From Squalus acanthias (taxonomy: Eukaryota): 64,000 nt of DNA. The translations under genes and the position numbers were made by a program. The notes below the pieces were generated by a model. The model made no database searches. It saw nothing but the letters and a program-made list of their open reading frames with translations, and was not told the DNA's origin. Numbering within the stretch: the stretch's first letter is position 1; every line of letters begins with the position of its first letter. Location: assembly GCA_030390025.1 (NCBI GenBank), contig CM059427.1, forward strand, positions 208,196,001 through 208,260,000. Direction: 5' to 3'. Below, piece after piece: positions 10,046-46,663 of this stretch.

Positions 10046-10320
10046 AGACTATTCGACAGGACAGTACGGGAAGGCGAATCGGTGACACTGAATTGTATTC
10101 TTCCAACAACAGATACAAACCCTGAGCTTTTCGGGTACCGGCAGCTCCTGGTCGGGCTCAGATAAAAGCTGAGAGCAGAGGAGAGCTCGGTTCCGCTGAG
10201 AGTTTCTGGGGCGGAGCTGTTAGGTGTCGCCATGTATTACTGCGCTCTGAGACCCACAGCTGAGAGTTTCTGGTGGGGGGAGCTGTTAGGTGGCGCCATG
10301 TATTACTGCGCTCTGAGACC
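10046..10320 (+). pseudogene. TCR alpha/delta-type V pseudogene #1 (5' truncated, internal deletion, duplicated 3' end)
   Basis: RTVREGESVTLNCILPTTDTNPELFGYRQ ... SVPLRVSGAELLGVAMYYCALRP; YYCALR ending is typical of TRAV/TRDV. Confidence 0.8.
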
Positions 10321-10359
10321 CACAGCTGCACAGCTCCGTGTTCGTCCTGTACAAGAAAC
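10321..10359 (+). promoter_or_regulatory. 23-RSS of V #1
   Basis: CACAGCT + exactly 23 nt + ACAAGAAAC. Confidence 0.85.
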
Positions 10360-11169
10360 TGCAGCAAACTGTGTGTAAATAGAACAGTGTGTGGCCGCAC
10401 TTCCCGCCTGTGATGGTCTGACTAGGACAGTTACTGTCAGGACAGAATATCCCCACAGGGCAGCTCCTAACAGCTCTGAATAGAGGAGGAAGATTTTAGA
10501 TTTCATTCACTCTATAATGAGAGATGAACAGGAGGAAACCCCCGCAGGTTTAATTGGCCATCGCATCGTGTAATGTGTGTTCAATTTCAAGTTTCCCCTT
10601 TTCACTGCGCGTGTATTTTTGTTCATTATCACTGCACTTAAACCAGCACAGAAATCTGCAGCTTTGCATAGGTTTTGATTGTATTCAAAGGGCTCGAAAC
10701 AGTCCCTTTTCTGAGCGATTGTTTAATTTCTGTCGGTGTGTGAAGGTTCACCGGGAGCATTGACTTCACTCTCCTGTAATATTGGTGTTTACACTGAGCT
10801 ATCCACTCCGTCGGGTAGATGTCATCTGGTCGCTACTTCCAGTGGCATAGTGAATGCATGCTAAGAGAATGAATGCCGATTCTACTAAACTAGCGGTCTG
10901 AAGAGATTTCCCGCTCTGTTTGGGATGTCGCTACCACAGAGATACCAGAAAACATCTTCACCTTGTGTGTTCCCAGCAGAAGGTTAATCAGAGAGAGACC
11001 AGAGAAAATATTCACCTTGTTTGTCCCAGCAGAAGGTTTATCAAACCCGAGCCCCTGTCACCATTTCCGCCTGATTAGTAACAGTGAGTGATATAAACCG
11101 AACATCATCATCTACATTCAAATACAATTTGTCACTTTGAGACGACTTTCATCTTTCAATTAGAGATCA

Positions 11170-11475
11170 ACATAGAAACATAGAAACATAGAAACTAGGA
11201 GCAGGAGTAGGCCATTCGGCCCGTCGAGCCTGCTCCACCATTCAATACGATCATGGCTGATCATCCAAATCCAGTACCCTGTCCCTGCTTTCTCACACAG
11301 AATCCCCATCGAGCCTGCACCGACACATATCCCACCCTATCCCCGTAACGCCCACGTATTTAATTCCCCCTAACATATCCCATCCTATCCCTATAACCCC
11401 ACATATTTAATCCCCCCCTAACACTAAGGGTAAATTTATCATAGCCAAATCAACCGAACCCGCACATTTTTGGGT
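11170..11475 (-). mobile_element. CR1 3' end fragment plus a second short retroposon tail
   Basis: (CATAGAAA)n tail and GGCCATTCGGCCC stem-loop. Confidence 0.7.
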
Positions 11476-11616
11476 CAATTCGAGATCAAGCTGTCTCTCG
11501 GGTCAATTAGAGGTTAAGCTGTCTCATTCCATTACTATTTCTTTCACTGATCAGCAGAATGTATCTGAAGTGAATGATTCGGTTCTCTACAACAAACACA
11601 TACTTGTGGGTAAGGG

Positions 11617-11626
11617 AGTGACATCA
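11617..11626 (+). promoter_or_regulatory. CRE-like decamer AGTGACATCA upstream of V #2 leader
   Basis: Matches the TCR V promoter decamer consensus, ~95 bp upstream of leader ATG. Confidence 0.6.
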
Positions 11627-11719
11627 GACCCGGCCCAGTCGATGATCTCAGTCCTTTCTATTTGATGTTCTGCGGGTTTCTGAGACACAAAAAGTCCTTA
11701 GAATTCCGGAGCAGCAGCA

Positions 11720-11765
11720 ATGCGGCTCCCCATTCTCGCTGTAGTGAGGATGACATTCATTGTTG
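11720..11765 (+). pseudogene. Leader exon of TCR V #2
   Basis: MRLPILAVVRMTFIV-G followed by phase-1 GTAAG donor; 46 nt is the typical Ig/TCR leader length. Confidence 0.65.
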
Positions 11766-11789
11766 GTAAGAGGTTTCTAACTTTTAAAC

Positions 11790-12400
11790 GGAGTTCATTT
11801 CTGGAAGAATATAATTGAAAACCAGAGAGGTTATGTTAAAAGTGTATGGACCCTTGGTTGGCCAGACTTGGAGGATTGTGCACTGTTCCGGTCTCCAAAT
11901 TATAAGAAAGATATAGGGGCATGTGCGAAGGTACCAAAAAATACAAGGATGTAAGTAGAAGTGAAAATTAAAACTATCAGTAAAGATTAAACAAGCTGGG
12001 GTTCTTTTATTTAGTAAACAGAAGGCTGAGATGTGACAATATAGAAGTCTCTAAAATTATGAAGGGTTTGATAGGATAGACGTAGCGAAGATGTTTTCAC
12101 TTGTGGGGGATTCCAAAACTGAGGGCCAGAAATATAAGATATTCACAAAAAAATCCAATAGAGAATTCAGGTAAAACGTATTAACCAAACGACTGGTGAG
12201 AATGTGGAACTCACTAGCACATGGAGTGTTTGAGGCGAATATCACAGATACATTTAAGGGGAATCTGGATAAGAGCATGAGGGAGAAAGGAATAAAAGTT
12301 ATGCTGTTATCTGAGGCTCGTGTGGAGCATAAACACCGGCACAGACCCGTTGGGCCAAATGAACTATTTCTGTGCTTTAAATTCTATTTAATTTTATGTA
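11790..12400 (+). mobile_element. Old CR1 3' fragment in leader-V intron
   Basis: Degenerate RT C-terminus (RMWNSL) and CR1 tail. Confidence 0.8.
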
Positions 12401-12486
12401 AAACTCACTGTGCCTTTTCACTTACAGTGCGGTTCAGTTTGAACTTTAAATCGATGACTTCCGCTTTCTTTAATTGTGTGTTCCTG

Positions 12487-12795
12487 ATCTGAGCGATGGA
12501 AATTCTGTTACTCAGCGGGAGCCCTCGCTCACACAGACAGAGGGAGAAGATGCCACTTTTACCCGCACCCATCCCGGCGATGGTGTTTACTTGTTCTGCT
12601 ACCGCCAATACCCGGGCAGACAGTCGGAGTATGCAGTGCGGAGGTTATACGGACGGTGGTTCTGAATATCGGGAGGATTTTGCTCAAGGCCGGTTTTCTG
12701 ATACAATCCAGCAGTCAGACAAGTTGTACCGATTGACTATCTCGGGGCTGCGGCTGTCTGACACACACCGCAGGGTATTACTGTGCACAGAGGCT
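12487..12795 (+). pseudogene. TCR alpha/delta-type V pseudogene #2 (frameshifted; first Cys and Trp lost)
   Basis: DGNSVTQREPSLTQTEGEDATFTRT..YLFCYRQYPGRQSEY / EDFAQGRFSDTIQQSDKLYRLTISGLRLSDT / TAGYYCAQR. Confidence 0.88.
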
Positions 12796-12834
12796 CACAG
12801 TAATGGCAAAGAGCTAAAGCCTCGCACAATAATT
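12796..12834 (+). promoter_or_regulatory. 23-RSS of V #2
   Basis: CACAGTA + exactly 23 nt + ACAATAATT. Confidence 0.8.
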
Positions 12835-13279
12835 GCCGGAGGTTTAAGGGGCACAGCTACTGTCTGTTGTGGCCAGTTTATCACAGCGGGTCAGACACTG
12901 ACACGTGAACACATTCCTGTGCGCGCAGACCCGAGCGCAAACCACATAAAACTCGTATAAAACCGTTCACATCGAATACTGATTGCATCTGATTATTTTA
13001 TTAGCTGGGCGAGCGCAGAATTGGCTGCTTTTTTCGTGTATCTCTGGGAGCCCGCCAGTCCCATTGAGAAAACAAACACACCTGCAGGTGGCCCGGAACT
13101 GGTTATATCGGTGAACTGCTGCTGCAGATCTAACGCACGGCAAACGGGCAAATAATGATTGGTTTGAAATACCACTCGACAGTGCAGACAGAGGCAAGTC
13201 AGATGGGGAAGACCCCAATAATTATAATAACTTTATTAAACAATTCTCAATATTAAAACACTTATACATATTAAAACTA

Positions 13280-13895
13280 AGAATATATGCTAATACATGC
13301 TAAACCTGTATCGAACCTTGGTCAGCCCACACTTGGAGTACTGTGTACAGTTCTGGTCGCCGTATTATAAAAAGGATATAGAGGCACTGGAGAGGATGCA
13401 GCGAATATTTACAAGGATGATACCAGAAATGCGAGTGTGTACCTATCAGTAAAGGATGAACAGGTTATATCTCTTTTCTCTTGAAAAAAGAAGGCTGAGT
13501 GCTGACCTAATAGAGGTCTTTAAAATTTTGAAAAAATTTGATAGATTGGATGCAGAGAGAATTTTTCCACTTGTGGGGAAGAGCATAACTACAGGCCATC
13601 ATTATAAGATAGTCAGCAAGAAATCCAATAGGAAATTCAGGAGAAACTTCTTTGCCAAAAGAGTGGTGAGAATGTGGAACTCACAACTACAGGGAGTGGT
13701 TGAAGCGAATAGTATAGATGCACTTAAGGGGAGGCTGTAAAAGCATATGAGGGAGAAGGGAATAGAGGGTTATGCTAATCGAGTTAGATGAGGAAAGAAG
13801 GGAGGAGGCTCTTGTGGAGCATAAAGGCCGGCATGGATTGGTTGGGCCGAATGGCCTGTTTCTGTGCCCTATATCTTGTGTAATCCGATGTAATC
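13280..13895 (+). mobile_element. CR1 3' fragment
   Basis: PHLEYCVQFWSP...LFSLEKRRLSADLIEVFKIL...RMWNS. Confidence 0.9.
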
Positions 13896-15114
13896 TGAAT
13901 GTTAAACCGATTCCAGGAGCTCACATTGAGGACAAGATCAGAAGCCGATGAACAAACATTAATGGATTTATAATCTGCAAGGACAGACATTGTGTGCTCT
14001 GGTCACCGGGCCAGATAATCAGAAGACCGACTGAAAGCAAGGCTAATAGAGACGGTATCAGAAAAATGCGATAGTGAGGTGCAAACAGTGTAAAGAACAA
14101 TTCACAAATACTAGATAACGTCGCGCAGAATCACTAAAGAGAATGATGTAATTTACAAGATGATTTAATGGGTTTACGTGTTACGTATTAATTAAAAATA
14201 ACCAGAAGGTGTTGACATGTTGCCAACACGTTAACAAAACGTTGCTAAGACTATAACAGTCACAGTACACAAAAGATCAAAAAAACTGAAAGATACCAGC
14301 TTGAAGCAGTCAAGGAAAAAGATGTCGACGCTGCTCACATTAGGAGTGGGTAATATCACTTCTATTGTATCTGTGGTCTTAGCTGGTAAGATTGTGAGTA
14401 ATCTCACTTATTAACTGTGCTTTGTCTTGTACTTAATAAAACTATTTATTTATCACAACCATTTTGGTAAATATCCTTCTGATCGTCTGACACCGGTAAG
14501 TCATTAACATTACCTTCACCGAATTGAAGGCAAAATTACCGGGGAGTAAGTCTAATGTATTCCACTCCATGGCAACAAATCCCCTGGAATCACCCGGCCG
14601 CCGATCTCTGCCTGTGTTATACAGGAGTTCACACAAAGAGTCGGTCATTAACCACTGAACTAAGGTTACTGGAAATAAGCTCACCCACCAGCTGGTCCGG
14701 GACTTGTTTATCAGCAACTAAGTGATTGTAAATCGTTTGGTGCTCCCAGAAATCACTCGAGTTAAATTGGTGAATTCACCAGTCCTCACAGGAACAGATT
14801 CTCCAGCCTGTCTCCGTCTCACTCGATGGTCGTTTGGTAAATAAAAAGAGAGTTCGGTCACTTTACAAATTCTAACGCGCATTATGTCAATACCTTCACA
14901 ATGAGGTATAAGATGATCTGGTGAGAAGTGTGAAAATCCATTCTCACTATAAAGCATTTATCTTTGGCCGTTTGATATTTCACCCTAGAGCAGAAATTTA
15001 TTGTCCGCCTGTTTCCACAGGGGACGGTAGAGTTTCTTCTTTCCTTTTCTTAGGTTGAATCCGTCATTAACCGACTGGGTTGATGAGCGGTCAACACCGC
15101 CTTTAATTTATAGT

Positions 15115-17130
15115 AACATGGGAACATAAAAACATAGAAGATAGGAGCAGGAGTCGGACATTCTTCCCCTCGAGCCTGCTCCGCCATTCGATGAGATCAT
15201 GGCTGATCATCCAAACTCAGTACCCTGTACCTGCCTTCTCCCCATATCCCTTGATACCTTTAGCTTTAAGAAATATATCTAACTCATTCTTGAATATATT
15301 TAATGACTTGGCCTCAACTACCTTCTGTGATAGAGAATTCCATAGGTTCACCACTCTCTGGATGAAGAAATTCACCCTCATTTCTGTCCTAAATGGCTTA
15401 CCCCTTATCCTTAGATTATGACCCCTGGCTCTGGACTCTCCGACCATCGGGAACATTCTTCCTGCATCTAGTTTGTTCAGACCTGTCAGAATTTTATATG
15501 TTTCGATGAGATCCCCTCTCATTCTTCTATACTCCAGCGAGTATAAGCCCAATCGACCCAATCTCTCCTCATATGTCATTCCTGAAATCCCAGGTATCAG
15601 CCTTGTGAATCTTCGCTGAACTCCCTCCATGGCAAGAAAATCCTTCCTCAGATAAGGCGACCAAAACTGCACACAATACTCAAGGTGTGGTCTTACCAAG
15701 CCCCTGTACAACTGCAGCAGGACATCCCTGTTTCTATACTTCAAACCCTTTCGCTAAGAAGGCCAACATACCATTTGCCTTCTTCACCGCCTGCTGCACC
15801 TGCATGCTTACTTTCAGCGACTGATGCACAAGGACACCCAGGTATCGTTGCACTTCCCCACCTCCCAATCTATTGCCATTCATATAATAGTCTGCCTTTC
15901 TGTTTTTGCCACCAAAGTGGATAAACTCGCATTTATCCACCTTATATTGCATCTGCCACGCTTCTGCCCACTCACCCAACCTGTCCAAATCATCCTGGAG
16001 TTTCTCGGTATTCTCCTCGCAGCACACACACACACCCAGCTTTGTGTCATCTGCAAACTTGGAGATATTACATTTAGTTCCCTTATCTAGATCATTAATG
16101 TATATTGTGAATAGCTGGGGTCCAAGGACTGATCCCTACGGTAACCCACGAGTCACTGCTTGCCACTCGGAAAAAGACCCATTAATTCATAATCTTAGCT
16201 TTCTGTCCGCCAACCAGTTCTCTATCCAAGTCAATACCTTGCCACCAGTCCCATGTGCCTTAACTTTACACGCTAATCTCTTATGCGGGACCTTATCAAA
16301 AGCCTTTTGAAAGTCCAAATACACCACATCTACTGGTTCTCCCTTATCTATTTTCCCAGTTACATTCTCAAAAAATTCCAGTATATTAGTCAAGCACGAT
16401 TTACCTTTTGTAAATCCATGTTGACTTTGTCCGATCCTGTCACTGTTTTTCAAGTGCTCAGCTATTACATCGTTTATAATGGACTCTAGCATTTTCCCCA
16501 CTACCGATGTCAAGCTTACCGGTCTGTAATTCCCCACTTTCTCACTACCACCCTTTTTAAATAGTGGGGTAACATTAGCTACCCTCCAATCCATTGGTAC
16601 AGTTCAGATTCCATCGAATGTTGGAATATGATCAGCAATGCATCTACTATTTCTAGGGCCACATCCTTAAATACCCTAGGATGTAGATTATCAAGCCCTG
16701 GGGATTTATCGGCCTTCAATACCGTCAATTTCCCTAACACCATTTCCCTGCAAATACTGATTTCTTTCAGTTCCTCCCTTTCATCAGACCATATGTTCTC
16801 CAACATCTCTGGGAGGTTATTTCGGTCCTCCTTTGTGAAGACAGTACCAAAATATGCATTTAATTAGTCTGCCATTTCTTTGTTCCCCATTATAACTTAC
16901 CCCGCTTCTGACTGCAAGGGACCTACACTTGATTTCACTAATCTTTTTCTCTTCACATATCTGAAAAAACTCTTACAGTCCGTTTTTATGTTCCCTGAAA
17001 GCTTACTTTCCTATTCTATTTTCCCCTTCTTAATTAATCCCTTTGACCTCCTTTGTAGAATCCTAAACTGCTCACAATCCTCAGGGTTACCGCTTTTTCT
17101 GGCCAATTTATATGCCCTCTCCTTGGATCA
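15115..17130 (-). mobile_element. 5'-truncated CR1 LINE (RT, frameshifted)
   Basis: [43 protein letters not shown] and CR1 tail. Confidence 0.97.
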
Positions 17131-17569
17131 GGAGTGGATGACGCCACAATCGTTTCAGTCCGTCGGAGCACCGTGTTTGACTGTTTCTCCCATTGATTCA
17201 GGGTCAGGGTGTCACGGGCCATCTCCAGCCTCCGTTCAGCGCTAAAGAGCAGCAATTTGTGCAGCCTATGACCCCTGACTCAAGGCGATGACCTGGGGGG
17301 TCAATCCGGGACCTCTTAATGTTGCGCTGCACTCGCTGAGAATCCCCGAGCCTGGAGGCAAAACAGAGAGTCGGGGAGAAACAGCGACGGTGGCTAACGG
17401 TAATTGGAGCTTAGAGAGGCGGGAGAGAGATTGGGGAGGAGACGGTGTTTACTCACCAAATCCATCCAATCCCAAAATTACTTCCAAGGCCCTTCAGTCG
17501 CGCGTTGATTCTTCCATCCAGCATCCCGTTGTGCTATTCCACTACAGATGACCTCACGCCTGAACATCC

Positions 17570-18315
17570 AGGCCCAGATATTCCGATCGCAGGCCTCCCG
17601 CGGGCGGAGGGCTGCGATCTGGAAAAATCTGCGACTTTACCTGAGGGCTCCCGGGAGGCGCAGAGTTCCGATGCTGGGCCTCTCCAAACTGCCGGTGCGC
17701 AGAGCCCGCGTATCCTAGAGGCGCAGGTAGTTCGCAGCGTCCCTGGGCTCATGTGGGACATGGGGAGACAATCAGAGAAGGTAATCTCCCTTCATACATT
17801 TGTCTGGAAGATCTGTCAATTATATGAATGGAGATCACCCCAAAGCATAGTAAAACTTCAAATAAATTTAAAAAAAACATCATATTTTTAAAATTACTTG
17901 AAATTACATAAATTAACTATTTTAAACAAACATTTAAATTTTTGAAAAAATAATTAAATTTTTTAACGGGGCTACAAATAAACTTACCTTCCTTTAAAGT
18001 GTTTTTAAATGATAAATCAGTGGAATTTTTTTTTTTTACTATTTTGAACTCTTATCCTGGTAAAAGCAGGCCTTACGCCTGCTTTTACCAGGCGCAAGAA
18101 TTGTAAGTGTTTTCTGCGGGCAGAGGGTCTACAAAAAGCGGAACTCTCCGCCCGCAGAGGCCCATCTCCCGGGCAGCCTGAGGAGCTTTCTTGACTGATC
18201 GGAAATGCCGGTTTCCAGCGCATGCGCAGTGCTTGCCTGAAACCGGCATTTCCAATGTCCCTACGGGTGGCTACACAGCGCGTACCCACCCTTAGATTTC
18301 GGAATACCGGCCCCC
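17570..18315. mobile_element. Putative non-autonomous TIR element (MITE-like)
   Basis: Imperfect inverted ends GGCCCAGATATTCC / GGAATACCGGCCCC, GC-rich arms, AT-rich centre. Confidence 0.4.
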
Positions 18316-18484
18316 AGCGTTTCGAGGAAAAGCATCCACGCATCAGAAGGAAAATGCTGGAAAATACTCGGGTCTGACCAGAAACCTCTGGAGATGTTCC
18401 CGTGTTCGGGAGGCTCCGAAAGAAAGATGAGATGTTGAAGAACAGGGTCCCAAAGTTCAGGGGTAAAGGCAGCTAATGTCACTA

Positions 18485-18985
18485 GCGGATCCATGCGTAA
18501 TCTTAAGTGAGTTCAGTAAGATGATATCAGAGAGTATGGAGCAGAGCAAGGAGAAAGGATCCCCAGGGTGATGGTCAGTGAGAACAGGTAGATGGTATCA
18601 GAGGGAATGGAGGTGAGCCGGGAGAAAGGATCCCTTCGGGGATGTCATTGAGTTCAGGTAGATGGTTTCAGAGGGAATGTAGAAGAGCAGCGAGAAAGGA
18701 TCCCTGGGGAGATGTTCAGTGAGTTTACGTAAATGGTATCAGTGGGAATGGAGGAGAGCAGGGAGAAAGGATCCCTGGTGTGATGTTCAGTCAGTTCAGG
18801 TAGATGGTATCAGAGTGAATGGAGGAGAGCAGGGAGAAAGGTACCCTGGGGTGATGTTCAGTGTGTTCAGGGAGATTGTATGAGAGTGAATGGAGGGGTG
18901 CAGGGAGGTAGGATCCCTGGGGTGATGTTCAGTGAGTTCAGTCAGTTGGTATCAGAGGGAATGGAGGAGAACAGGGTGAAAGGTA
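18485..18985. repeat. ~70-bp tandem repeat, ~7 copies
   Basis: GGATCCCTGGGGTGATGTTCAGTGAGTTCAGGTAGATGGTATCAGAGGGAATGGAGGAGAGCAGGGAGAAA recurring every 70 nt. Confidence 0.93.
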
Positions 18986-19439
18986 ATTAGGAAACTGGAG
19001 ACAGATGATCAGGGTTAATGGGCGTTGCTGAGATTGGAGAAGGGTTGGAAATGATTTATTTTCTCCGTGGTCTCTGTAAAACATTTTCACTCGGAACTCC
19101 TTTAAAGAGGTAAATCCAAATCAGAAATACATTCAATAGTGAGGAGGGTTCCATTCGTGCACGTGGCCTGAACAAAACTAAAATGATTTTGCCCGTCTAT
19201 CACACAACCTGTATCCAGGGCGGCCCACTGGCGCAGAAGGCTCAAAAATACCGGCGGATACCATGTGACCCCTCCTCTCATTTGTCTCAAATACTGTCTA
19301 AAAGCGTCAGACACTCTGTGTGTATAACTGCAAAAATGGAGAGAGTATAACAGAAAACGGTCGAAAGAGTGCTTGTGTGTCTGATAGGCCCCAGGCTCTG
19401 GGAATCATTCCCAGGATTGTGCTCCCCGGCGTGTTTATG

Positions 19440-20185
19440 TCAGATATCTAACCGTGCTGTACCTGCCCTGGGGGTGGTTGATGGGACAGTGTGAACGGAG
19501 CTTTACTCTGTATCTAACCCGTGTTGTATCTGCCCTGGGAGTGTTTGATGGGACAGTGTAGAGGGAGCTTTCCTCTGTATCTAACTCGTGCTGTACCTGC
19601 CCTGGGATTGTTTGATGGAACAGTGTAGAGGGAGCTTTACTCTGTATCTAACCCGTGCTGTACCTGCCCTGGGAGTTTTTGATGGTCATGATGCGGAGAT
19701 GCCGGTGTTGGACTGGGGTGGACAAAATTGAGAGGTCGCCCAACACCAGGTTATAGTCCAACAGTTTTATTTGAAATCACAAGCTTTCGGAGCTATCGAT
19801 TGCCCCTTCCTCAGGTGAAGTAAATAGATACAGAATCGCCAAAGCATATATATGCTTTGGCGATTCTGTATCTATTTACTTCACCTGAGGAAGGGGCAAT
19901 CGATAGCTCCGAAAGCTTGTGATTTCAAATAAAACTGTTGGACTATAACCTGGTGTTGTGCGACCTCTCAGTTTTTAATGGGACAGTGTAGAGGGAGCCT
20001 TACTCTGTATATAACCCGTGCTGTACCAGCCTTGGGAATGTTTGATGGGACAGTATAGAGTTAGCTTTACTCTGTATCTAACCCGTGCTATACCTACCCT
20101 GAGAGTGTTTGATGGGACAGTGTAGAGCGAGCTTTACTCTGTATCTAACTCATGCTGTACCTGCCCTGGGAGAGTTTAATGGGAG
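19440..20185. repeat. 67-bp minisatellite interrupted by Penelope-type palindrome
   Basis: CTGTATCTAACCCGTGCTGTACCTGCCCTGGGAGTGTTTGATGGGACAGTGTAGAGGGAGCTTTACT units. Confidence 0.93.
19687..19975. mobile_element. Penelope-like terminal fragment forming ~250-bp palindrome
   Basis: 19724-19975 self-complementary about 19849/19850; CTGAGGA...GAAA core, AATAAA; homologous to 62096-62190. Confidence 0.75.
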
Positions 20186-21169
20186 ATTTACACTGCCATG
20201 GACTGCACTGTATCAGGCTGTGATGGAGCAGATCCCTGCTCTGCAATAGAACCTGACATGTGACTCTTTAGACCATAATATTAGTGGAGACTGCATGTTG
20301 CGCCTGGTCACTAACAGTCATTCCACCTATCGGGCTTGACATAAAAATGCCTGGGTAAAGGTGTTTTTTCTCTGATGGAAAACTGGGTGGCGCAGTGGCT
20401 CCTTAACCGAAGGGTCTTGAGTTGAATCACATCTCAGACAGGACGTGTGAAATATACCTGCAGGGGAAATCAAGAAAGTGTGATAGGGAAACTGGAGCGG
20501 TGTAGAGGAGCCTCGGAGAAAGGAAATCAGCAAAGTCTAACTTAGTAAAGTTGTCATTCCAGATTTATTAACAATTGCACAGAGTAAGATTTACAGAGAA
20601 CGGTTTAAAAAGGTAACACAAAGTGAATATAATAACTGAGCGTCACATTGAGAACTGAACACAGGCGGTCTGAGCTGCCAGCTATCTGTACAACTGTAAC
20701 AGACACCAGGGAGAGAAAACAGGGGCTCAACATGAAGGTGGGGGGGCGGGAACAATTGTGAATTAGGAATGAGAAAAGTGACTTATTTACACGTGTAATA
20801 TTCAAACGACTGTAAGATACATTTACATTATAGACACGATTATCTCACATATTTCAAACAGAAAGACAGAATCCCGTTGATATTTTCGCAGCTATACATT
20901 CGGTACTTTTAACTGAAGGCATTTAATTTGTGAATCACCAAGAGGACATATTTTATTTTCAGAACACAGCGATGTTAATAAACAGATGAGGAAAACGCTC
21001 GGTGTTCGAAATTCAATAGATAACTTGGCTTGTAAAAGAGGGATAAAAGAATGAAGCAGAGGTTTCGCTGTCCGGGACATTTATCTCAGGGTTTTTTTCA
21101 ATGAAACTTTTAGAGATTTGTCAAACCGCTTCAGTCAGGTTGAAGTGTGAGTGGATTGAACCTTCCATC

Positions 21170-21297
21170 CTTCACCAGAGTGACGGCAGCGCTCTATGAA
21201 ATGCTCAGGAATAACAGGAGGATGAATGTGGAAGCGGTTGTCCAGATGTTGCCGCTCTCGTCCTCACAGTCTTCAATCCAGATGTGGTCTGAGGAAT
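21170..21297 (-). pseudogene. IGHM: IgM heavy chain TM1 exon
   Basis: AG acceptor; DSSDHIWIEDCEDESGNIWTTASTFILLLFLSIS*SAAVTLVK; in-frame stop and donor reads GA instead of GT. Confidence 0.95.
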
Positions 21298-35545: not shown

Positions 35546-35583
35546 CTTATGACAGTTTCCCCCGTGTATCCCATAACACTAAC

Positions 35584-35883
35584 CTGCCATTGTGATGTTC
35601 CAGACCGACTCACTTCGTCGAACCACGCAATAGATTGTGCTGCTCCCCACCTCTGACTCGGTGAGGGTTAACTGGCTGCTCAGGGTGTAGGTTCCCCTCA
35701 TGTTGAGCACTGATGGGTAAGTCTTAAATCCAGTGGTGAGCGGCTCTTCATCTTTCTTCTAGGAAAGGCTGGTGATTTCGGGGAAGTAGTCCATCGCTAA
35801 ACAGCCGAAGGTCACGGAGCTGTCAGTGTTGGATTGTACACAGGAGGAGAGCAGGGCGTAGAGGATGGGAGGAGACGGTGTCG
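35584..35883 (-). pseudogene. IGHM: IgM Cmu1 exon
   Basis: [94 protein letters not shown]; AG/GT bounded; domain Trp codon is TAG. Confidence 0.96.
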
Positions 35884-36479
35884 CTGGGAAAGTATGGCCA
35901 ATTGAACAAGTTGGACTCTGTAATCCGTGCTCATAAAAAAACCAAAGAACTCGAAATCTGACTGCAGGATAAATTATTTCCATCATTTTCCGCTCGAAGA
36001 CTACATCGGCATTTGAGCTTCTATCAGTTCCATCATACGCACCTGTCGATCCCTTGGTCAGGAACACATCTCTGTAACCCCGAGCTCTATCACATTACAG
36101 AAATAAGAACCTTTTCTCCTCACCACAATAAAGTATATTTCAATGGATCATACAATAGAAGAGCAGAGACGTGTCCCTGTTATTTCGGTCAGCATTTATG
36201 TCTCAATCAACGACACTTTTAGTCATTTATTTCACGGCAGTTTTTTGAAATTGGCTCTGTGTCAATTGACTTCTGCATTTCCTTACAAAACAAGAGTGAC
36301 TACACTTCAGAAGTAACAGCGTAATCCGTGCTTATAAAATTAGCTAAAAATCCTCAAACCTTGACTACCATAGAATTGAACAGGGCCTAGTTTCTAAGAT
36401 CTGCAGATGAAGAGGGAATGATTCGAATCTATCCCTTTCCTTCTCAGTATTTAAGGAAGAGCGATGTTCTTCAACGCAC

Positions 36480-37072
36480 TGTGATTTGTGATAGCGTATG
36501 GTATACTTGGCTTTGTAAATGGTGAACTGAATGTAAAAAAACAAGGAAGTTGTGCTAAACCTTTACAAATCACGGGTTAGGCCTCAGCTGGAGTATTGTG
36601 CACAATTCTGGCACCACAATTTAGGAAGGATGACAAGGCCTCGAAGAGGGTACAGAGGAGGTTTACCAGGATGATACCAGGGACGAGGAACTTCAGTTGT
36701 GTGCAGAGATTGGAGAAGCTGGGATGTTCTCCTTCGAGCAGAAGTTAGGTGGAGACCTAATAGAGGTATTCAAAGATATGGGAGGTTTTGATAGAACAAA
36801 TAGACAGAACCTGTTTCCTCTGGCAAGTAGGTCACAGATTTAAAATAATTGTCAAAGATCTAGAGGGTAAATTGGGGTAATTTCTTCACACGAAGGGTTG
36901 CTAATTTCTGGAATGCACCAGACAGCTGGACATGTAATTGAAGAGTACTCATTTGCAGCGTTACGAGGAAAATACTGGGGTATTGGACGAAATTGGACAG
37001 CTCTTTCAGAGCCGGCACAGGCAAGACGGGCCGAATTGCCTCTTTCTGTGCTCTAAGTTGCACTGATTCTAC
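36480..37072 (+). mobile_element. Old CR1 3' fragment
   Basis: GGTTAGGCCTCAGCTGGAGTATTGTGCACAATTCTGG and tail. Confidence 0.8.
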
Positions 37073-37799
37073 ACGAGTCAGCGGAAATAGTTCTTCCCGA
37101 TTGAATGGAAGGAAACGTTTCATATTCTGAACACCTATCAGATCTATTTTATTCGTTGTTATAAAGAAAGAGGATATTTAAAATAAAGGGATATCAGCAA
37201 TCTGACGTAACTGAGTGAATCGGTTACTGTTATAAAGTCTTAAAGCTCATTGTGAATGACGGCTCATTGCAGGCTGACTGTAAATCATTAAATGTTTCAC
37301 AGAAGTGCAGCTCAGTGACTGACAGCCTTGTGTTCTGACCCAGTTCAATAACTGCAACTCGGCCGAATTTGTCCCTTTTCCAAAGAAAATTGAACGAAAC
37401 AATGGTTTCAAACATAAAGTTCCCATGATGGTTATTTGGCGCGGGAGAATCAACATTCTACATTTAAATTTTCAAAATAACTTCCAGCCCCCCGTCAGAC
37501 CAGAACAGACGCTGCTTTCTGGAGCGTTACAGTCACTTCCTGAATCTGTTTGTTCTGAAAGTGAGCTCCGGATCAGACCAATCTCATTCAATAATTATCT
37601 GATACTCAAAATGTTTAAACATTAACAAATCATTCAAATTTGGGCATTTTTTTCAGAAAGAACGTTAACATCAATTAATGTGCATTGTGTCATCGGGGCA
37701 ATGGAACGATTTATTTTTATATATCTGGCTCAAGCACTCGCGCCTTATTAGTTAGATGCCGATTAAGGTTCCTTCAATACTGTTGGAAAAACCATTCTC

Positions 37800-38115
37800 A
37801 TGACAGATACAGGACAGATAAAATATAGTAAATCTCACTCTACACTGCTCTGTCACGCACTGTAAGGTCAGCTATAGCAAAGGTTGAATTCACTTTAAAC
37901 AGCCTACTGCACTGTCCTGTCAGACACTCCGGGTCAAATATAGCAAGGTTTACATTTCGAGTAAAGCTCCCTCTACAATTTTCCGTCAAACACTCCCAGG
38001 GCAGTTACAGCACCAGTTCGATACAGAATAAAGTTCCCTCTACACTGTCCCTTCAAACACTCCCAGGGCAGGTACAGCATGGGTTAGAAACTGACAAAAG
38101 CTCCTTATACAGTCT
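37800..38115. repeat. Degenerate 67-bp minisatellite (reverse orientation)
   Basis: AAACACTCCCAGGGCAGGTACAGCA units. Confidence 0.75.
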
Positions 38116-40379
38116 CCCTGCAGTTATTCTGAACTGCTTCTTCTGAATGTCACAAACTGGTTTACTGATTTCATTTCCGAGGCGCCTCCTCAACCGCAAT
38201 GTCAACTGTTCAAGTTTCTCACAGATACAAGTTTCTTAAATAACTGAGTCAAATTACACACCCTTTAATAGAGGAGCACTAACCAGGTTTACAACCAGTC
38301 AGGAGGACTCCTGATTCTCACACTGTGAGCAGTCGCCGGGAAACAGAACAGACACAAAGGGTGCAACAATGGTACTCGCGGCAGATGGGTCTGTTCAATC
38401 TGTTAATTTCAATGAAGCTGTTTGATTTCTAATTTATTTCTTGTCAATTTTCGACCACCTCAACTCTGCACGTTCTTTGAAATTAAACTGGTATTAATGT
38501 GAAAAACTCTTCATCATCCAACAATTTCTCCCTCTCTGTCGACAATCTTGCAAACCGTGTATGATTTAATTTCCCTGAAAACAAGTGTGTCGAAATAATT
38601 CACATTCCAGGATAATTTGCTGCCCGTAACCCGGGACTCAGCGGCAGAGTAAGAATGTAACAAACCAGGAGACATTTACATTGAAAACCGATTACCCACT
38701 GATGTGGTATAATTTCATAATTAAATATAACCTATAAATTCATCGAGGGGAAACTCGAAGTTAATTCATTAAAATCTGCGGCGATACCTTCTCGAGCCGA
38801 ACACAGCTGAGAAAGAAATATATTGTTTCTTAAATGAATTTTAGACTTCATGAAAAATTCACCAACCCTTGAAATTTTGCACTAACTGTAATCCTGGCAA
38901 TTGTGAGCGGTCATTTATGTTGAATGAATTGGCACTGATGTTATATTCTAAGTTAATGTTCATGTCAGCTGATGTTACTCTGTATCATTGAAAATCATCT
39001 GTGAGCCTGTCTGGCCCTTCCTCCTCAGAGCCACCCGCACCTGGAACTGGTGTAATTAAATTAATCTGCTTGAATTTCAGTGTGTTATCTGTCATCTCCA
39101 GTCTTATTAATAAAATTAATTCAGAGTAATTTTAAACCTGTTTCTGACTGGTAACTTATGCAATATTAGGGTTTTAATTAAATTGGCATGATAATTCATC
39201 AATATTAAAATATCAAACATCATATTAATACATAAATACAATCAGACTAATATATTCATTTTACTAAAATAAAATCACATTCGAATAATTAAAAATGATC
39301 ACGAACTTCTAATCCTGTCCAGTTCTCTACCTACACCGTTTTAAACTCGTCATGATTCTGATCTCTCTGATCTAACATAACTCCGTCTATTCTCATCGTG
39401 TAGTTCACATTATGGATTTAGGAGTGGACTTTTTTAAATAGTTCAATGTCCGGCCGGGGTCACATCTCACTAACTGCCGATGGGCTGAAACACCGCCTGT
39501 TAACTAAAGCTGAATTCTCGAGTTAAAATATTGTCCTCAATCGTAAACATAAAAAAATGTGTATTAATTAAAAAACACCCGGGCAGTTTGCAGTCAGTAA
39601 CAGAGCCTCCGCTGATAACTAACACAAACAATCTTTTATATTTTTTCTCCCGTAATTCACACTATGCCAGTAAATTAATTATGAAATATAGTCTGCTATT
39701 TATTGAAAATAAGTTCCAGAATGATCAGTGTAAAACTGGACGAGAACAATTCATTCAGACCATCTGCGGCACTGATACTTCATGAGCAAATGGAGGAGAG
39801 ACTTTGTTCATCAAATTAATGATTGATAAGAATTAAACATAACCCGCGGATATAATCTGTCTTTTGTCTATTGCTCTGTCCCGTATACAGCAGAGCTCTG
39901 GGAGACAGGATGTTGTTTTAAATTCAAAATAATATGAACCTTTTGTAATTAAATTAATCTGAATGAATTTCAATGGGTTATTTGTCTGTCTTCAGCCTTA
40001 CACAGTCTGAACCTTCCTTCAATTAAAATAGAATGACATGAACAATTATTTGACTGCCAGCGACTTCAGTGTCTCAGCCTTTGAATTTGCTGTTTAGTTT
40101 AGTAACAATTATTTCGCTATCAAACAAACAATAATATTGAAGGACTAACAAATTTTCGGCTGCACAGTATGAATTTAATAACTCGCCAGATATATTAAAT
40201 TGTCAAACTGCAATTTATAACACGGATTTAAGTTGTATTTAAATTCAACCCGTTATTCATCTGTGTAAATCATAGGGTAACAAGTAATTAAAACCCCGAA
40301 TCATACTGAACACAACGGTGGAATCAGTATGTTGTTATTGAAATAATTGCAGGCAAAATTAAAAACACTCTCCCGCCTC

Positions 40380-43300
40380 TAAAATTTTCCGCTCACGGTA
40401 AAATTTTCCGCTCACAGAGGCGGCGGACCTGGGTGGAGCGCCTGCGGCCAGGCGGCGGCTGTAAAAGAGGCGGCGGCGACCAGGCAGGCTTACCAATCTG
40501 AGCTCCTGGAGCGGGAGAGAGAGAATTAAAAAATAATCAAAGTGTTACGTCTCAGAAAGCAGGTAAGTGATTGGTTGGTGAGTATTTATCTTTTTCTCCT
40601 TTTTTCCATACTTAAATTCTGTGGTTTATAGTTTCTAGAGTCTCTGCGGTGTAGCGGGGACTGCTGTTAAGGAAGGGCCCTTGAGTATATCATTTAATTG
40701 AAGTGAAATTGGTGGGATTCAATTAGTTTAATTTTAATTAATTAATTAAAGGGTAAGTCATGGCAGGAGAGCTCGGAGGCGTGACATGCTCTTCCTGCTA
40801 TATGTGGGAAATCAGGGACGCTTCCTGTATCCCTGACGACCATGTGTGTGCTGCAGCTACTGACGGACCGCATTGCGGCGCTGGAGCTGCGGATGGATGC
40901 ATATTGGAGAATTCGTGACGCTGAGAAGGTCGTGGATGTTACATTTAGCGAGTTGGTCACACCGCAGGTAAAGAATGTACAGGCAGGAAGTGAATGGGTG
41001 ATCACCAGGCAGAGTAAGAGGTGCAGGCAGGTAGTGCAGGGGTCCCCTGTGGCCATCCCCCTCTCAAACAGATATATCACTTTGGATGCTGTTGGGGGGG
41101 GATGAATTATCAGGGGAAGGCGGCAGTAGCCAACTTCCTTGCACCATGGGTGGCTCTGCTGCACAGGCTGGGAGGAAAAAGTGTGGAAGAGCTATAGTGA
41201 TAGGGGATTCAATTGTAAGGGGAATAGATAGGCGTTTCTGCGGCCGCAAACGAGACTCCAGGATGGTGTATTGCCTCCCTGGTGGAAGGGTCAAGGACGT
41301 CTCGGAACGGCTACAGAACATTTTGGAAGGGGAGGGCGAACAGCCAGTTGTCGTGGTGCACATAGGCATCAACGATATAGGTAAAAAACGGGATGAGGTC
41401 CTAAAAGCAGAATATAGGGAGTTAGGAGGTAAATTAAAATATGGGTCCTCAAAAGTAGTAATCTCAGGATTGCGACCAGTGCCACGTGCTTGTCAGAGTA
41501 GAAATAGGAGGATATTTTAAATGAATACGTGGCTAGAGGAAGTGTGCAAGGGGGAGGGATTCAAATTCCTTGGACATTGGAACCGGTTCTGGGGGAGGTG
41601 GGACCAGTACAAACGGGACGGTCTGCACCTGGGCAGGGCCGGGACCGATGTCCTAGGGGGAGTGTTTGCTAGTGCTGTTGGGGAGGGTTTAAACTAAAGT
41701 GGCAGGGTGTTGGGAACCTGAGCAGAGATACAGAGGAAAGGGAAACAAGGATAAAAGCTAAAGACAGGAAGGAGAAAAACAAAAGTAGAAGGCAAAGAAC
41801 TCAACGGTTTAAATCAAACATGGTCACAGTAAATAATAATTCATATAGGTCTGAGAGCGTTAAAAAAACAAGCCTGAAGGATTTGTGTCTCAATGCAGGG
41901 AGCAATCATAATAAGGTGGATGAATTAGCTGCGCAAATAGAGGTAAATGAATACGATTTGATTGGGATTACAGAAACATGGCTCCAGGGTGGCCAAGGCT
42001 GGGAACTCAACATCCAGGGTTATTCAATATTTAGGAAAGATAGGCAAAAGAGAAAGGGGGTGGGGTAGCATTGCTGGTTAAAGAGGGGTTTAACACAATT
42101 GAAAGGAAGGATATTAGCTCTGATGATGCAGAATCTGTATGGGTAGAACTGAGAAATAACAAGGGGCAGAAAACGTTAGTGGGAGTGGTATATAGACCTC
42201 CAAACAGTAATACGCAGGTTCGGAACGGCATTAAAAGGGAAATTAGAGAAGCATGCAGTAAGGGCACAGCAGTCATCATGGGTGACTCTAATTTACATAT
42301 AGATTGGGCTAACCAAATTAGTAAAAATACTGAGGAGGAGGAATTCCTGGAATGTTTACGAGATGGTTTTCTGGAACAATTTGTCGAGGAACCAACTAGA
42401 GATCAGGCCATCTTAGACTGGGTATTATGTAACGAGAAAGGATTAATTAGCAATCTTGTTGTACGAGGCCCCTTGGGTCAGAGTGATCATAATATGATAG
42501 AATTCTTCATTCGGATGGAGAGGGAAGTAGTTGAATCAGAGACTCGGGTCCTGAAATTAAATAAAGGAAACTACGACGGTATGAGGCGCAAATTGGATAG
42601 GATTGATTGGGGAATGTCACTCAAGGGGTTGACGGTGGATAGGCAATGGGAAATATTCAAAGACTGCATGGATGAACTACAGAATTTGTCCATCCCAGCG
42701 TGGCAAAAGAATAAAACAAAAAGGGTGACTCAACTGTGGCTAACAAGGGAAATTAGGGATAGCATACGATCCAAGGAGATGGCATATAAATTGGCCAGAA
42801 AAAGCGGTAGCCCTGAGGATTGGGAGCAGTTTAGGATTCAACAAAGGAGGACAAAGGGATTAATTTAGAAGGGGGAAATAGAATATGAAAGTAAGCTTGC
42901 TGGGAACATAAAAACTGACTGTAAGAGCTTTTATAGATATGTGAAGAGAAAAAGATTAGTGAAATCAAGTGTAGGTCTCTTGCAGTCAGAAGCGGGTGAA
43001 GTTATAATGGGGAACAAAGAAATGGCAGACCAATTAAATGCATATTTTGGTTCTGTCTTCACAAAGGAGGACACAAATAACCTCCCACAGATGTTGGAGA
43101 ACATACGGTCTGATGAAAGGGAGGAACTGAAAGAAATCAGTATTTGCAGGGAAATGGTGTTAGGGAAATTGACGGGATTGAAGGCCGAAAACTCCCCAGG
43201 GCCTGATAATGGACATCCTAGGGTACTTAAGGAAGTGGCCCTAGAAATAGTAGATGCATTGCTGATCATCTTCCAACATTGTATGGAATCTGGAACTCTG

Positions 43301-44771
43301 CCCATGGATTGGAGGGCAGCTAATGTTACCCCACTATTCAAAAAAGGTGGTAGAGAGAAAGCGGGGAACTACAGACCGGTAAGCCTGACATCGGTATTGG
43401 GGAAAATGCTTGAGTCCATTATAAAGGAGTAATAGCTGAGCATTTGAAAAACAGTGACAGGATCGGACAAAGTCAACATGGATTTACAAAAGGTAAAGCG
43501 TGCTTGACTTATCTACTGGAATTTTTTGACTATGTAACTGGGAAAATAGATAAGGGAGAACCAGTAGATGTGGTGTATTTGGACTTTCAAAAGGCTTTCG
43601 ATAAGGTTCCGCATAAGAGATAAGCGTGTAAAGTTAAGGCACATGGGATTGGGGGTAAGGTATTGACTTGGATAGAGAACAGGTTGGCGGACAGAAATCA
43701 GAGAGTAGGAATCAATGGGTATTTTTCTGACTGGCAAGCAGTGATTAGTGGGGTACCGCAGGGATCAGTCCTTGGACCCCAGCTATTCACAATATACATT
43801 AATGATCTAGATAAGGGAACTAAATGTAATATCTCCAAGTTTGCAGATGACACAAAGCTGGGTGGGAGTGTGTGCTGCGAGGAGGATACCGAGAAACTCC
43901 AGGATGATTTGTACAGGTTGGGTGAGTGGGCAGTAGCGTGGCAGATGCAATATAACGTGGATAAGTGCGAGGCTATCCACTTTGGTGTCAAAAACAGAAA
44001 GGCAGACTAATATCTGAATTGCAATAGATTGGGAGAAGGGGAAGTGCAACGACACCTGGGTGTCCTTGTGCACCAGTCGCTGAAAGTAAGCATGCAGGTG
44101 CAGCAGGCGGTGAAGAAGGCAAATGGTATGTTGGCCTTCATCGTGAAAGGGTTTGAGTATAGGAACAGGGATGTCCTGCTGCAGTTGTACAGGGCCTTGG
44201 CGAGACCACACCTTCAGTACTGTGTGCAGTTTTGGTCGCCTTATCTGAGGAAGGATGTTCTTGCTATTGAAGGAGTTCAGCGAAGATTCATAAGGCTGAT
44301 ACCTGGGATGGCAGGAATGACATATGAGGAGAGATTGGGTCGATTGGTCTGAAACTCGCTGGAGTATAGAAGAATGAGAGGGGTTCTCATCGAGACATAT
44401 GAAATTCTGACAGGTCTGGACAAACTAGATGCAGGAAGAATGTTCCCGATGGTCGGAGAGTCCAGAACCAGGGATCATAATCTAAGGATAACGGGTAAGC
44501 CATTTAGGACAGAAATGAGGAAGAATTTCTTCACCCAGAGAGTGGTGAACCTGTGGAATTCTCTACCACAGAAGGTAGTTGAGGCCAAGTCATTAAATAT
44601 ATTCAAGAATGAGTTAGATATATTTCTTAAAGTAAAGGTATCAAGGGATATGGGGAGAAGGCAGGTACAGGGTACTGAGTTTGGATGATCAGCCATGAGC
44701 TCATCGAATGGCGGAGCAGGCTCGAGGGGCCGAACGGCCTACTCCTGCTCCTATCTTCTATGTTTCTATGT
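40380..44771 (+). mobile_element. Near full-length CR1 LINE in the JH-Cmu1 intron (ORF1 esterase, ORF2 EN+RT, disrupted)
   Basis: GC-rich 5'UTR, CSSC zinc motif, IGDSIVRG/HIGIND/DGLHL, ITETWL, GVVYRPP, SDHNMI, KFADD, tail. Confidence 0.97.
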
Positions 44772-44779
44772 AATTGAGC

Positions 44780-46090
44780 CCAATGTACAGCAGGATTGTG
44801 GAAGGCGAATACTGGTTTGTATATTAATATTAATACTATTGCATATTTTAATAATATTGGGAGATATTATCGCATTATAATCGTTTGATTAATATTAATT
44901 TAATTTAACTGTAAACCTGAACACTTGCTAATTATGTAGTTCTTAATTATAGTAACAGTTCAAACATTAAATATGTGCATCGTAAACCATACATTAATAG
45001 TTGAATGCATAATTATCACTTCAATAAAAAGATACGTTAACATACCTTTCAAAAATTTTTGATTTCTAACTCCTTCCTGTTTTCCGCCTATAATCTTCTT
45101 TCCAACATTTTTAAAAACATGTAACGTTTGCATTAGATCAGAAACCTGCCGCTCGATGTCACCGAGATTAAACATTATAGAAACGCCAAACAGTTTCACA
45201 AATTCTAGGTATTCAAAGTAACCCAGACACACGCTCTCCTCAGCAGATCAGCATTAAATGACATCACTGAGGGGCTGAGTCCCTCGACAGAACCTTTCAT
45301 GGAGCAGCAGCTTAATTCTATGAACACTTTCAGCAGAATCAAATACAACATTGCCAAAATATCTCAATAGAGAATCCACCGAACCCGCCAGTCACTGAAC
45401 GAATTAATTATTGAAATAAGCAGGAATATAAAATAATGACAGCAGAATAGTGAGTAGACGGATCATGTTCAATATTTTAATATTGATATTGTAGCATATT
45501 TTAGTAATATTGGATGATATCACTACATTGAAATAATTTAAGTTATATAAATCAAATCAAAGCTGTTCCAGGCTGCAAATTTGTTAATTATGTTGATTTT
45601 AATTACAGTAACATTTCATGTATTAACTATGAGCGTTCGTGAACATTAGATTAATGGATGACATTTAGTTAGTTATCACGTTAAAATATCACAAGATTAT
45701 TTTTGAGCACTGAAGCTTTCTGTTTTCTGCCTGCAATCTTATTTCAAACACATTTAAACACAATCTTTGGTTTCGATCAGAAAACCTGCATCAATTCGAT
45801 GTCACCGAGATTAAACATTGCAGAAACGCTAAAAGGTTAAAATCCGTTAGGTATTTAAAGTTACGCAGCCACACAGTCTCATCAGCAGATAAACACCAAA
45901 TCACATCAATCAGGGGCTCAATCCTTCAACTGTATTTTCTGTGGAGAAGCTGTTTAATTCTATAATCGCTTTGCAGCAGATTCAAATGGAACATTGCAAA
46001 AAATCACAATATAGAATCCACCGAACCGAAGTTTCAGTGAACGAAATAATTGTTAAAATAAACAGAAATATCAAATAAAGACACAAGTAC
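44780..46090. repeat. Diverged ~645-bp tandem duplication just 3' of JH
   Basis: CGATGTCACCGAGATTAAACATT at ~45154 and ~45797; AGAATCCACCGAACC at ~45371 and ~46013. Confidence 0.85.
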
Positions 46091-46121
46091 AACAGTTACT
46101 TAATGAGTGCATGTTTCATAC

Positions 46122-46490
46122 CTGCAGTCACCGTCACCATGGTCCCTTGTCCCCAGCATCCCATGACCCAGTAAACCCTGCTGCTGTGGTGTCCTGTACA
46201 GTAATAGATGGCGGTGTCTTCGGTCCTCACGTTCTTCATATCCAACGCGAAGATGTTTGAAGTGTCTTTGGACGGAGTAAATCGGCTCTCAATCCCTGGA
46301 GCGCAGTTCTAGCTCGATCAACTGAGACAGCTAACCAGCCACTCCAACCCCTGTCCGGGAACATGTCGGACCCAGTGCATATAGGTGCTGCCAAGATCGA
46401 TCCCGCTGGTTTTACAGGTCAGTCTCAGGGAGCCTCCTGGACTGCCGGTCTCTGCCTCTGACTCAGTCAACACGACATCCGACTGGATAC
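46122..46490 (-). pseudogene. IGHV: Pre-joined (germline-joined) IgM VH-D-JH exon
   Basis: [121 protein letters not shown]; in frame, no RSS, 369 nt between AG and GT. Confidence 0.97.
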
Positions 46491-46617
46491 CTGTAAAAAA
46501 AATCAAAAGCCCTGAGGCTTAATCCTGGTGAAATGATTCATGACTCTGTAACATTCCGGAGAGAGACTAACACTGAGACAGTAGTAGTGAGAGACTTGGA
46601 CAATAAAAACTTCTCAC

Positions 46618-46663
46618 CGGATAAGAAAGCCAGCAACAGACTGAGAGAAATCGCACATCTCAT
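46618..46663 (-). pseudogene. IGHV: VH leader exon
   Basis: MRCAISLSLLLAFLS-G + GTGAG donor, 46 nt. Confidence 0.93.

Follow-up and report, generated by a model that had tools for sequence, protein, structure and literature searches.

A probable segmental duplicate of the shark antigen-receptor complex, with a dead IgM cluster and two TCR alpha/delta V pseudogenes, in Squalus acanthias

The window analyzed here is a 64,000-nucleotide stretch of the Squalus acanthias genome (GCA_030390025.1, contig CM059427.1, positions 208,196,001 to 208,260,000), placed by the assembly 0.55 Mb from the end of scaffold C3. Two V pseudogenes, V1 and V2, lie on the forward strand and face an IgM cluster on the reverse strand, so that the two groups of genes are convergent. 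The initial annotation had described two TCR-like V pseudogenes with 23-RSS some 8 to 11 kb from the IgM transmembrane (TM) exon, and this was borne out: V2 and V1 are 8.4 and 10.9 kb from that exon, respectively, and the only N runs of the window (47571-47820 and 48766-48986) fall outside the intervening DNA.

V1 (10045..10359, +) ends in an RSS at 10321-10359, made up of the heptamer CACAGCT at 10321, a 23-nt spacer, and the nonamer ACAAGAAAC at 10351. It has been truncated at its 5′ end by a repeat, carries an internal deletion of ∼22 codons and a stop, and has a 66-nt duplication of its 3′ end. The V2 leader exon (11720..11765, +) is collinear with V2-family genes of scaffold C911. V2 itself (12488..12834, +; exon start approximate) has its RSS at 12796-12834, with the heptamer CACAGTA at 12796, a 23-nt spacer, and the nonamer ACAATAATT at 12826; the splice acceptor AG is lost, insertions of +1 and +4 are present, and the FR2 Trp is replaced by Cys. 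Neither segment has the open frame, splice sites, and conserved Cys/Trp of a functional TCR V. Both RSS are recognizable yet worn compared with those of intact relatives, and with four mismatches each they fell below a strict scan of the window that allowed three. The matches returned by that scan at 14261, 22029, and 59380 were not at a V, D, or J and were taken as chance, as was a 22-nt match to J-alpha that lies within the J-C intron at ∼37.4 kb and has no RSS or full motif.

In a V-segment tree whose members did not include named shark TRAV/TRDV, NARTCR, or IgL sequences, V1 fell in a 100/98 clade with C911_184881, and V2 grouped with ten C911 V segments (100/99). V1 and V2 are of TCR alpha/delta type, grouping with the V families of C911 and not with IgH V or other IgSF genes, as the initial annotation had proposed. 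A PDB search using a V2 relative returned mostly multidomain antibody constructs and was not diagnostic. Four V2 lesions were common to all ten V2 copies of the duplicated family that were aligned and absent from 14 other V2 rows, and the ten copies formed a 100/99 clade; because all ten share these lesions, V2 would have been dead before the block spread. Downstream of V2, the flank (12835..14785, +) shows homology to DNA of the TCR alpha/delta V array; it is 74 to 80% identical to C911, which it matches over a longer stretch than it does C29, and is broken by a repeat at 13.3-13.9 kb. At the junction between this DNA and the IgM 3′ flank lies a LINE-like retroelement (15114..17129, no strand assigned), the site of which holds different DNA in five other copies compared (∼0.55 kb in C1516, C988, and C3247). 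The IgM 3′ flank (17133..21169, −) contains satellites and repeats and is homologous to DNA downstream of TM in the C29 IgM clusters.

The IgM cluster has the composition of a shark IgM minicluster, with one V, two D, one J, four C exons, a tail, and TM; the D1, D2, and J of its joint were traced by eye against split clusters. All features are on the reverse strand. A leader exon (46618..46663) is followed by a germline-joined, in-frame V-D1-D2-J exon (46122..46490) with a 14-residue CDR3, two stops in V, and no RSS left at the joint. CH1 (35584..35883) has one stop, CH2 (33944..34257; 5′ boundary approximate) two, and CH3 (29047..29355) one. CH4 with the secretory tail (28230..28576) has two stops and a 1-bp deletion that shortens the tail to GEQCL*, and the TM exon (21170..21297) has an in-frame stop and has lost its GT donor. 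The cluster is thus "complete," as initially annotated, in its exon inventory only (leader, VDJ, CH1-4, secretory tail, and TM), given nine stop codons (two in V and seven in CH1-CH4/TM), the frameshifted tail, the lost donor, and the absence of a free RSS. It has neither a split V-D-D-J with RSS nor a joined VDJ followed by open C exons, as a rearranging or functional IgM would. Changes assigned to the window lineage in the C and TM exons comprised 50 nonsynonymous (seven of them stops) in 772 sites and 9 synonymous in 236 sites (pN, 0.065; pS, 0.038), counts that show no purifying selection. An insertion of ∼0.2 kb just upstream of the leader, between TATA and ATG, was missing from an intact cluster and from a sister copy. 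A RAG-like activity of germ cells probably produced the joined VDJ.

The frameshifted short secretory tail was also seen in four IgM clusters of C130, which have duplicated CH3-CH4 and match spliced contigs. No CH4a-to-CH3b splice was present among the 15 joints listed of 239, and no description of an IgM with a short tail or duplicated CH3-CH4 was found in the titles and abstract openings searched. If translated, this lineage could represent a nonpolymerizing or six-domain IgM.

The genes of the window belong to a duplicated block (6988..48765, no strand assigned) that is collinear with C29:16.99-17.04 Mb except at 40-47.8 kb, which is missing from that copy; homology of the IgM cluster to an intact C29 unit runs on to ∼49.3 kb. 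From the V segments to TM, the block is collinear, at 83 to 92% identity, with copies on C29 and on unplaced contigs, and the stretch at 13.9-15.1 kb had at least 16 family matches on at least 12 contigs (40 scored of 171 candidates). Some of the unplaced copies may be haplotigs (C3247/C3563 and C988/C826). V1, V2, their flanks, the Ig flank, and TM, including intergenic DNA, therefore moved as one piece, a long collinear match to other loci as expected of a segmental duplicate. Trees of TM and of CH3/CH4 did not place all members of the family in a single resolved clade, and the exact source unit was not found among the loci compared.

A candidate type of source is found on C911 and C29, which are separate scaffolds in the assembly. 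On C911, a V array is followed by D, J, and C and then by another J array and another C, the order of a TCR alpha/delta locus; the scaffold also carries an IgM constant region and a VH-like array upstream of D-delta. The C-delta and C-alpha exons were each found once, on C911, and their labels rest on position, on a C1-set match for C-alpha, and, for C-delta, on 60% identity to an automatically named shark TCR chain. C-alpha was identified by reading the C911 sequence, and no database homolog of it was found; the C-delta exon had no Pfam match. Two weak matches from a PF09291 search for C-alpha, on C19 and C15, both contained stops and were rejected. On C29, 24 intact TCR-type V segments were present among 35 non-IgH matches at 8.23-8.38 Mb, and two units that each extend from IgM exons to V-array DNA were 92 to 98% identical. 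At C29:8.275/8.283 Mb and again at C911:23.1/14.8 kb, ∼8 kb separates an intact convergent V from a TM exon. In one comparison, with C29:7.97-8.00 Mb, ∼29 kb was missing from the window. A search of 324 kb of C3 yielded no TCR D, J, or C near the window, which has neither these segments in cis, as a TCR alpha/delta locus would, nor the 12/23 RSS partner and usable C in cis of a chimeric substrate.

The window is very probably a dead block of IgM and TCR V pseudogenes, a segmental duplicate from the shark antigen-receptor complex, and is predicted to encode no receptor and undergo no rearrangement. IgM clusters and TCR V arrays may have been duplicated together within the complex, after which a deletion in one unit likely brought the V1-V2 pair to ∼8 kb from TM, and the pair died. 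The unit would then have been amplified to ∼16 places in GPCR-rich duplicated DNA. Most copies examined appear to have lost the VDJ; the window copy, which kept it, would have decayed through point mutation and retroelement insertion.

Where this block truly resides is less certain. Its contig could belong to distal C29 and have been mis-scaffolded to the end of C3, which would change its placement alone; we consider this unlikely, though deserving of some weight. A 500-N run, which may or may not represent an assembly gap, lies 33 kb left of the window, no telomere array was found in the last 8 kb of C3, four close copies are located at C29:16.6-18.2 Mb, and the GPCR gene family neighboring the window is also present on distal C29 and many unplaced contigs. 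However, the window copy is 8 to 12% diverged from all C29 copies and has its own insertions, and C3 holds two further relics, one at 208.42 Mb and one at 206.92 Mb with the same VDJ junction (95.5%; this sister shares the VDJ region only, with no C exons or TCR V segments in common). A V2-family orphan on C7 likewise indicates that dispersal to large chromosomes occurs elsewhere in the assembly. A false join within the window, between 13 and 21 kb, is a far weaker proposition and is extremely improbable. Much of the sequence at 13.3-20.2 kb consists of repeats and satellites, 12.4-21.4 kb is not spanned by any public contig, and no RNA run was listed as matching that stretch. Against this, V2, flank, Ig flank, and TM follow one another in the same way in C1516, C1835, C3212, and four C29 copies; the V-IgM linkage is real, and even a false join could do no more than connect two of this family's copies. 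The best public sequence runs contained 0.27 to 0.30 of the words of the window copy, no contig of X1 or X2 has the window's letter at position 12585, and no window-specific letters were seen among the matches listed; these runs may derive from another species or individual, or the contigs may have been dropped.

The initial annotation suggested that an Ig cluster may have been inserted in or beside a TCR V array, as a route to Ig/TCR chimeras. Recognizable 23-RSS on both V segments and the known VH-to-TCR-delta rearrangement of sharks are in keeping with an array here that could still rearrange, but this reading is already largely refuted and has almost no probability left. Both V segments are broken, the IgM D and J lack RSS, only two TCR V segments occur in 164 kb, no 12-RSS or TCR J motif was found in 324 kb of C3, and C-delta and C-alpha are on C911 only; the window therefore cannot be such a route. 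The V-Ig junction did not arise here, since it is present on other contigs, and nothing points to insertion at the window, although an Ig cluster inside a TCR V array does exist at the source locus on C29/C911 and has been published. Orphon IG/TR genes are nonfunctional antigen-receptor segments outside the main locus, and the alternative first offered, an orphon region, comes closer. The window segments are nonfunctional and, if the assembly placement is right, outside the main locus, and C3 has further Ig and TCR relics at distances of up to 1.3 Mb. Unlike in the orphon concept, they form a mixed Ig and TCR block that moved preassembled; because V1, V2, and IgM share one collinear block with other copies, one-by-one gathering of unrelated genes is refuted for them, and it is very unlikely overall. 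A literature search on orphons found no shark-specific paper among those listed. Finally, the window could be what remains of an arrangement that is still functional on C29, where intact 23-RSS TCR alpha/delta V segments lie 8 to 40 kb from IgM clusters whose D1 has a 5′ 12-RSS, so that joining of a TCR V to IgM D-D-J would be possible. We regard this as very improbable; if true, antibodies with a TCR V domain would be the reverse of the known VH-TCR-delta chimera.

The dead block resembles several described systems. In the elasmobranch AgRC as described by Flajnik et al. 2025 (PMC12227049), TCR alpha/delta V exons lie between IgH clusters in sharks and rays, and some Ig genes lie outside the AgRC. 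For white shark, catshark, and stingray, Table S1 of that study has TCRa/d V entries, some of them pseudo, flanked by IgM entries that bear the labels "pseudo?," "missing V," or "gj." The window likewise has TCR alpha/delta V beside IgM, but on another scaffold, without TCR D/J/C, and dead. The portions of that paper seen give no account of IgM and V array co-duplication or of an amplified dead block (PMC12227049), although a fuller description of IgM clusters inside the V array may already exist in the literature. For trans-rearrangement of IgM/IgW V to TCR-delta and for TAILV-type V genes, PMC12227049 and PMC5931798 cite Criscitiello 2010, Deiss 2019, and Ott 2021. Physical proximity of IgH and TCR alpha/delta genes is common to both cases; however, trans-rearrangement requires a split VH with RSS and TCR-delta D-J-C in cis, and the window has neither. 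Germline-joined shark Ig genes have likewise been described (Lee et al. 2000, PMC2193156; review, PMC5192425). The window shares with them a fully joined, in-frame VDJ within an IgM minicluster, but it is a pseudogene with four C domains, whereas IgM1gj has three.

Taken alone, the window is unremarkable, a dead copy of an arrangement already published; it is of use for what it points to. An IgM cluster and a TCR V array can, as it shows, be one duplication unit, and with such joint duplication no repeated insertions would be needed to account for the published interleaving. The window also led to a map of the TCR alpha/delta locus of this genome and of dozens of intact V segments between IgM clusters, so that their usage, and the joining of any of them to IgM D segments, can now be tested.

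Two TCR-type V pseudogenes, V1 (window 10045-10320) and V2 (leader at 11720, exon about 12488-12795), lie on the + strand, each followed by a heptamer, a 23-nt spacer, and a nonamer, and face the TM exon of an IgM gene on the − strand (21297-21170) across 10.9 and 8.4 kb, respectively, of N-free sequence, as the initial annotation had described. A repeat truncates V1 at the 5′ end, ∼22 codons are missing from it, and it carries one stop and a duplicated 3′ end; in V2 the splice acceptor is gone, insertions of +1 and +4 are present, and a Trp is replaced by Cys. In a tree of 86 protein rows, built on just 97 columns and with the VH-like Vs reduced to 7 rows, V1 and V2 each clustered in a starred clade with V array genes of scaffold C911, where their intact relatives are found, and the window VH grouped with IgM VH. 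Both segments were therefore placed with TCR alpha/delta array genes rather than with the non-TCR IgSF genes named in the initial annotation as the outcome that would count against it. No further TCR Vs were identified in 164 kb around the window.

The IgM gene had been described as a complete cluster, which is correct for its exon inventory but not for its state. The germline carries V, D1, D2, and J as a single in-frame fusion, two stops lie in V and seven in CH1 to TM, the TM donor is lost, and the promoter carries an insertion. Over the 336 codons on which two other clusters concur, pN was 0.065 and pS 0.038, both from small counts. The gene is a pseudogene. D and J pieces of its joint can be traced against split clusters, and joining within germ cells through RAG-like activity is the explanation given for germline-joined genes in the sections consulted of PMC2193156. 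An isolated sister VDJ at C3:206,919,548-926 (95.5% identity; the 100 kb read there contains no C exons) has the same joint but a different stop; the common ancestor was therefore likely open. Other germline joins of IgM were observed at C29:7.615, 7.664, and 8.526 Mb and at C988:505 kb; two of them have an open VDJ, one is a partial VDD-J join, and one is a VDJ with a stop.

The block formed by V1, V2, their flanks, and the IgM pseudogene belongs to a family of copies. C29:16.99-17.04 Mb matches window positions 6988-39938 and 47882-48765 collinearly at 82-92%, as do C1516 and C29:18.1 Mb. The order V2, V2 flank, Ig flank, TM is repeated in C1835, C3212, C29:16.58 Mb, and C29:18.23 Mb, while V2 and the Ig flank are present in C3247 and C3563. 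Junction-side DNA gave at least 16 family matches on 12 contigs, some of them possibly haplotigs. Four V2 lesions were common to all 10 aligned family copies, which formed one clade against 14 other sequences, and the VDJ was absent from all five copies checked across the J-C intron. Given this shared order, a misjoin between 13 and 21 kb, raised in the initial annotation, is unlikely, and the V-IgM arrangement did not originate at the window site. Counting against this reading, TM and CH trees did not resolve the block family, and no confirmation of the window copy was found in public sequencing runs. The genome is marked as a shark's by its minicluster IgM and by close homologs in Chiloscyllium and Scyliorhinus. 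In the assembly, the window (C3:208,196,001-208,260,000) lies near the right end of C3 (208,813,015 bases), with a 500-N run 33 kb to its left, and genuine dispersal of the block to C3 is likely. The block is set in a very large GPCR gene family (3,082 first-look candidates) with further members on distal C29 and on unplaced contigs; one member, a rhodopsin-family gene at window 59649-60737 (+), is interrupted by a stop. The window also contains a LINE fragment of young age within the intron between CH2 and CH3 (30107-31758, −), with a 527-aa open reverse-transcriptase frame and 99% identity to copies elsewhere, and broken LTR-element-like pol remnants (2125-3194, −), with an RNase H match and an integrase-like stretch seen by eye that had no Pfam match. 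Another deleted block copy (V1, flank, CH2, CH1) lies at C3:208.424-208.430 Mb; a distinct V2-family orphan, not part of the family clade, lies at C7:64.07 Mb. Terminal Ig heavy C exons, presumably IgNAR-like, were located at C29:16.73, 17.13, and 17.70 Mb and at C1516:376.7 kb; three of the four are ∼100 to 140 kb from block copies, and they belong to a larger duplication on distal C29.

From ∼6 to 10.3 Mb on C29, relatives of V1 and V2 alternate with IgM V and TM matches. Dense TCR alpha/delta V arrays in both orientations lie between IgM clusters at 7.95-8.02 and 8.23-8.38 Mb; of the two stretches read fully, one had 11 of 15 V matches intact in 70 kb and the other 24 of 35 non-IgH V matches in 150 kb. 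Two units are 92-98% alike from the IgM exons through into the V array (the second fetched in part), and by this similarity the V arrays appear to have been duplicated together with the IgM clusters. On C29 as on C911, intact Vs point toward TM exons ∼8 kb away, so the geometry singled out in the window is ordinary there. Compared with one C29 unit, the window lacks ∼29 kb between the Ig flank and the V2 flank, which suggests a deletion in the lineage of the window block; its true parent unit was not found.

C911 (1-70 and 170-660 kb read, remainder sampled) opens with the constant region of an IgM, including TM and four open C exons (0.1-14.8 kb), followed by the V array, 26 open VH-like Vs in tandem (374-519 kb, just before D-delta; "TAILV-like" is an inferred label), one D flanked by 12- and 23-RSS (557.9 kb), 14 J, a first C exon (C-delta, 583 kb), further J segments seen in four stretches sampled at 690-778 kb, and, at 782 kb, a second C exon (C-alpha). 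This succession is that of a TCR alpha/delta locus, with the delta and alpha labels resting mainly on position. Across this locus (1-783 kb), the IgM constant region at the 5′ end shares its orientation with D-J-C-delta. C-delta was found once, on C911, among the best 150 of 756 candidates scored, as was C-alpha (124 of 124 scored). Scanning 324 kb of C3 for TCR D, J, and C segments revealed no 12-RSS and no J motif beyond the two joined IgH J. With none of these segments in the DNA scanned, C-delta and C-alpha found on C911, and just two TCR Vs in 164 kb, the window site is no route to Ig/TCR chimerism, the role proposed for it in the initial annotation.

The window CH4 tail shares a 1-bp deletion with the distal C29 copies, with C988 and C826, and with the first CH4 in each of four C130 IgM clusters (145-155, 259-291, 538-547, and 686-713 kb) in which CH3-CH4 is duplicated and the order is CH1-2-3a-4a-3b-4b. 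Both clusters read far enough showed TM, and both have an open V; the one cluster examined for it has a split D-D-J with RSS. CH4a ends in a short, frameshifted tail (GKQCL* in three clusters, GKQC* in one) and keeps the internal splice donor, and CH4b has the full tail. Pairwise comparisons, in which pairs are not independent, gave pN 0.005 and pS 0.049 for CH4a, which looks to be under constraint, and pN 0.011 and pS 0.009 for CH3b (three clusters, the fourth being frameshifted), which shows no apparent sign of it. Contigs of presumed RNA runs matched CH2-CH3a at ≥99% and contained CH2-CH3a and CH3a-CH4a splice joints; no CH4a-to-CH3b splice was among the 15 joints listed of 239 for C130. 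These clusters could possibly encode a short-tail or six-domain IgM.

Malecek et al. (2008), in the portions consulted, describe groups of IgM pseudogenes as well as the V-D-D-J-C plan of the minilocus, and the accessible text of Ott et al. (2018) restates VH/TCR-delta chimeras. In the parts consulted of Flajnik et al. (2025; PMC12227049), TCR alpha/delta V exons are located between IgH clusters, Table S1 places such Vs between IgM clusters that include pseudogene, V-less, and germline-joined forms, and the closeness of IgH and TCR is taken to support VH-to-TCR-delta rearrangement. The window shows the same interleaving but is new as an instance and dead. The block is real, explained, and mostly known, a dead new instance of a published arrangement.
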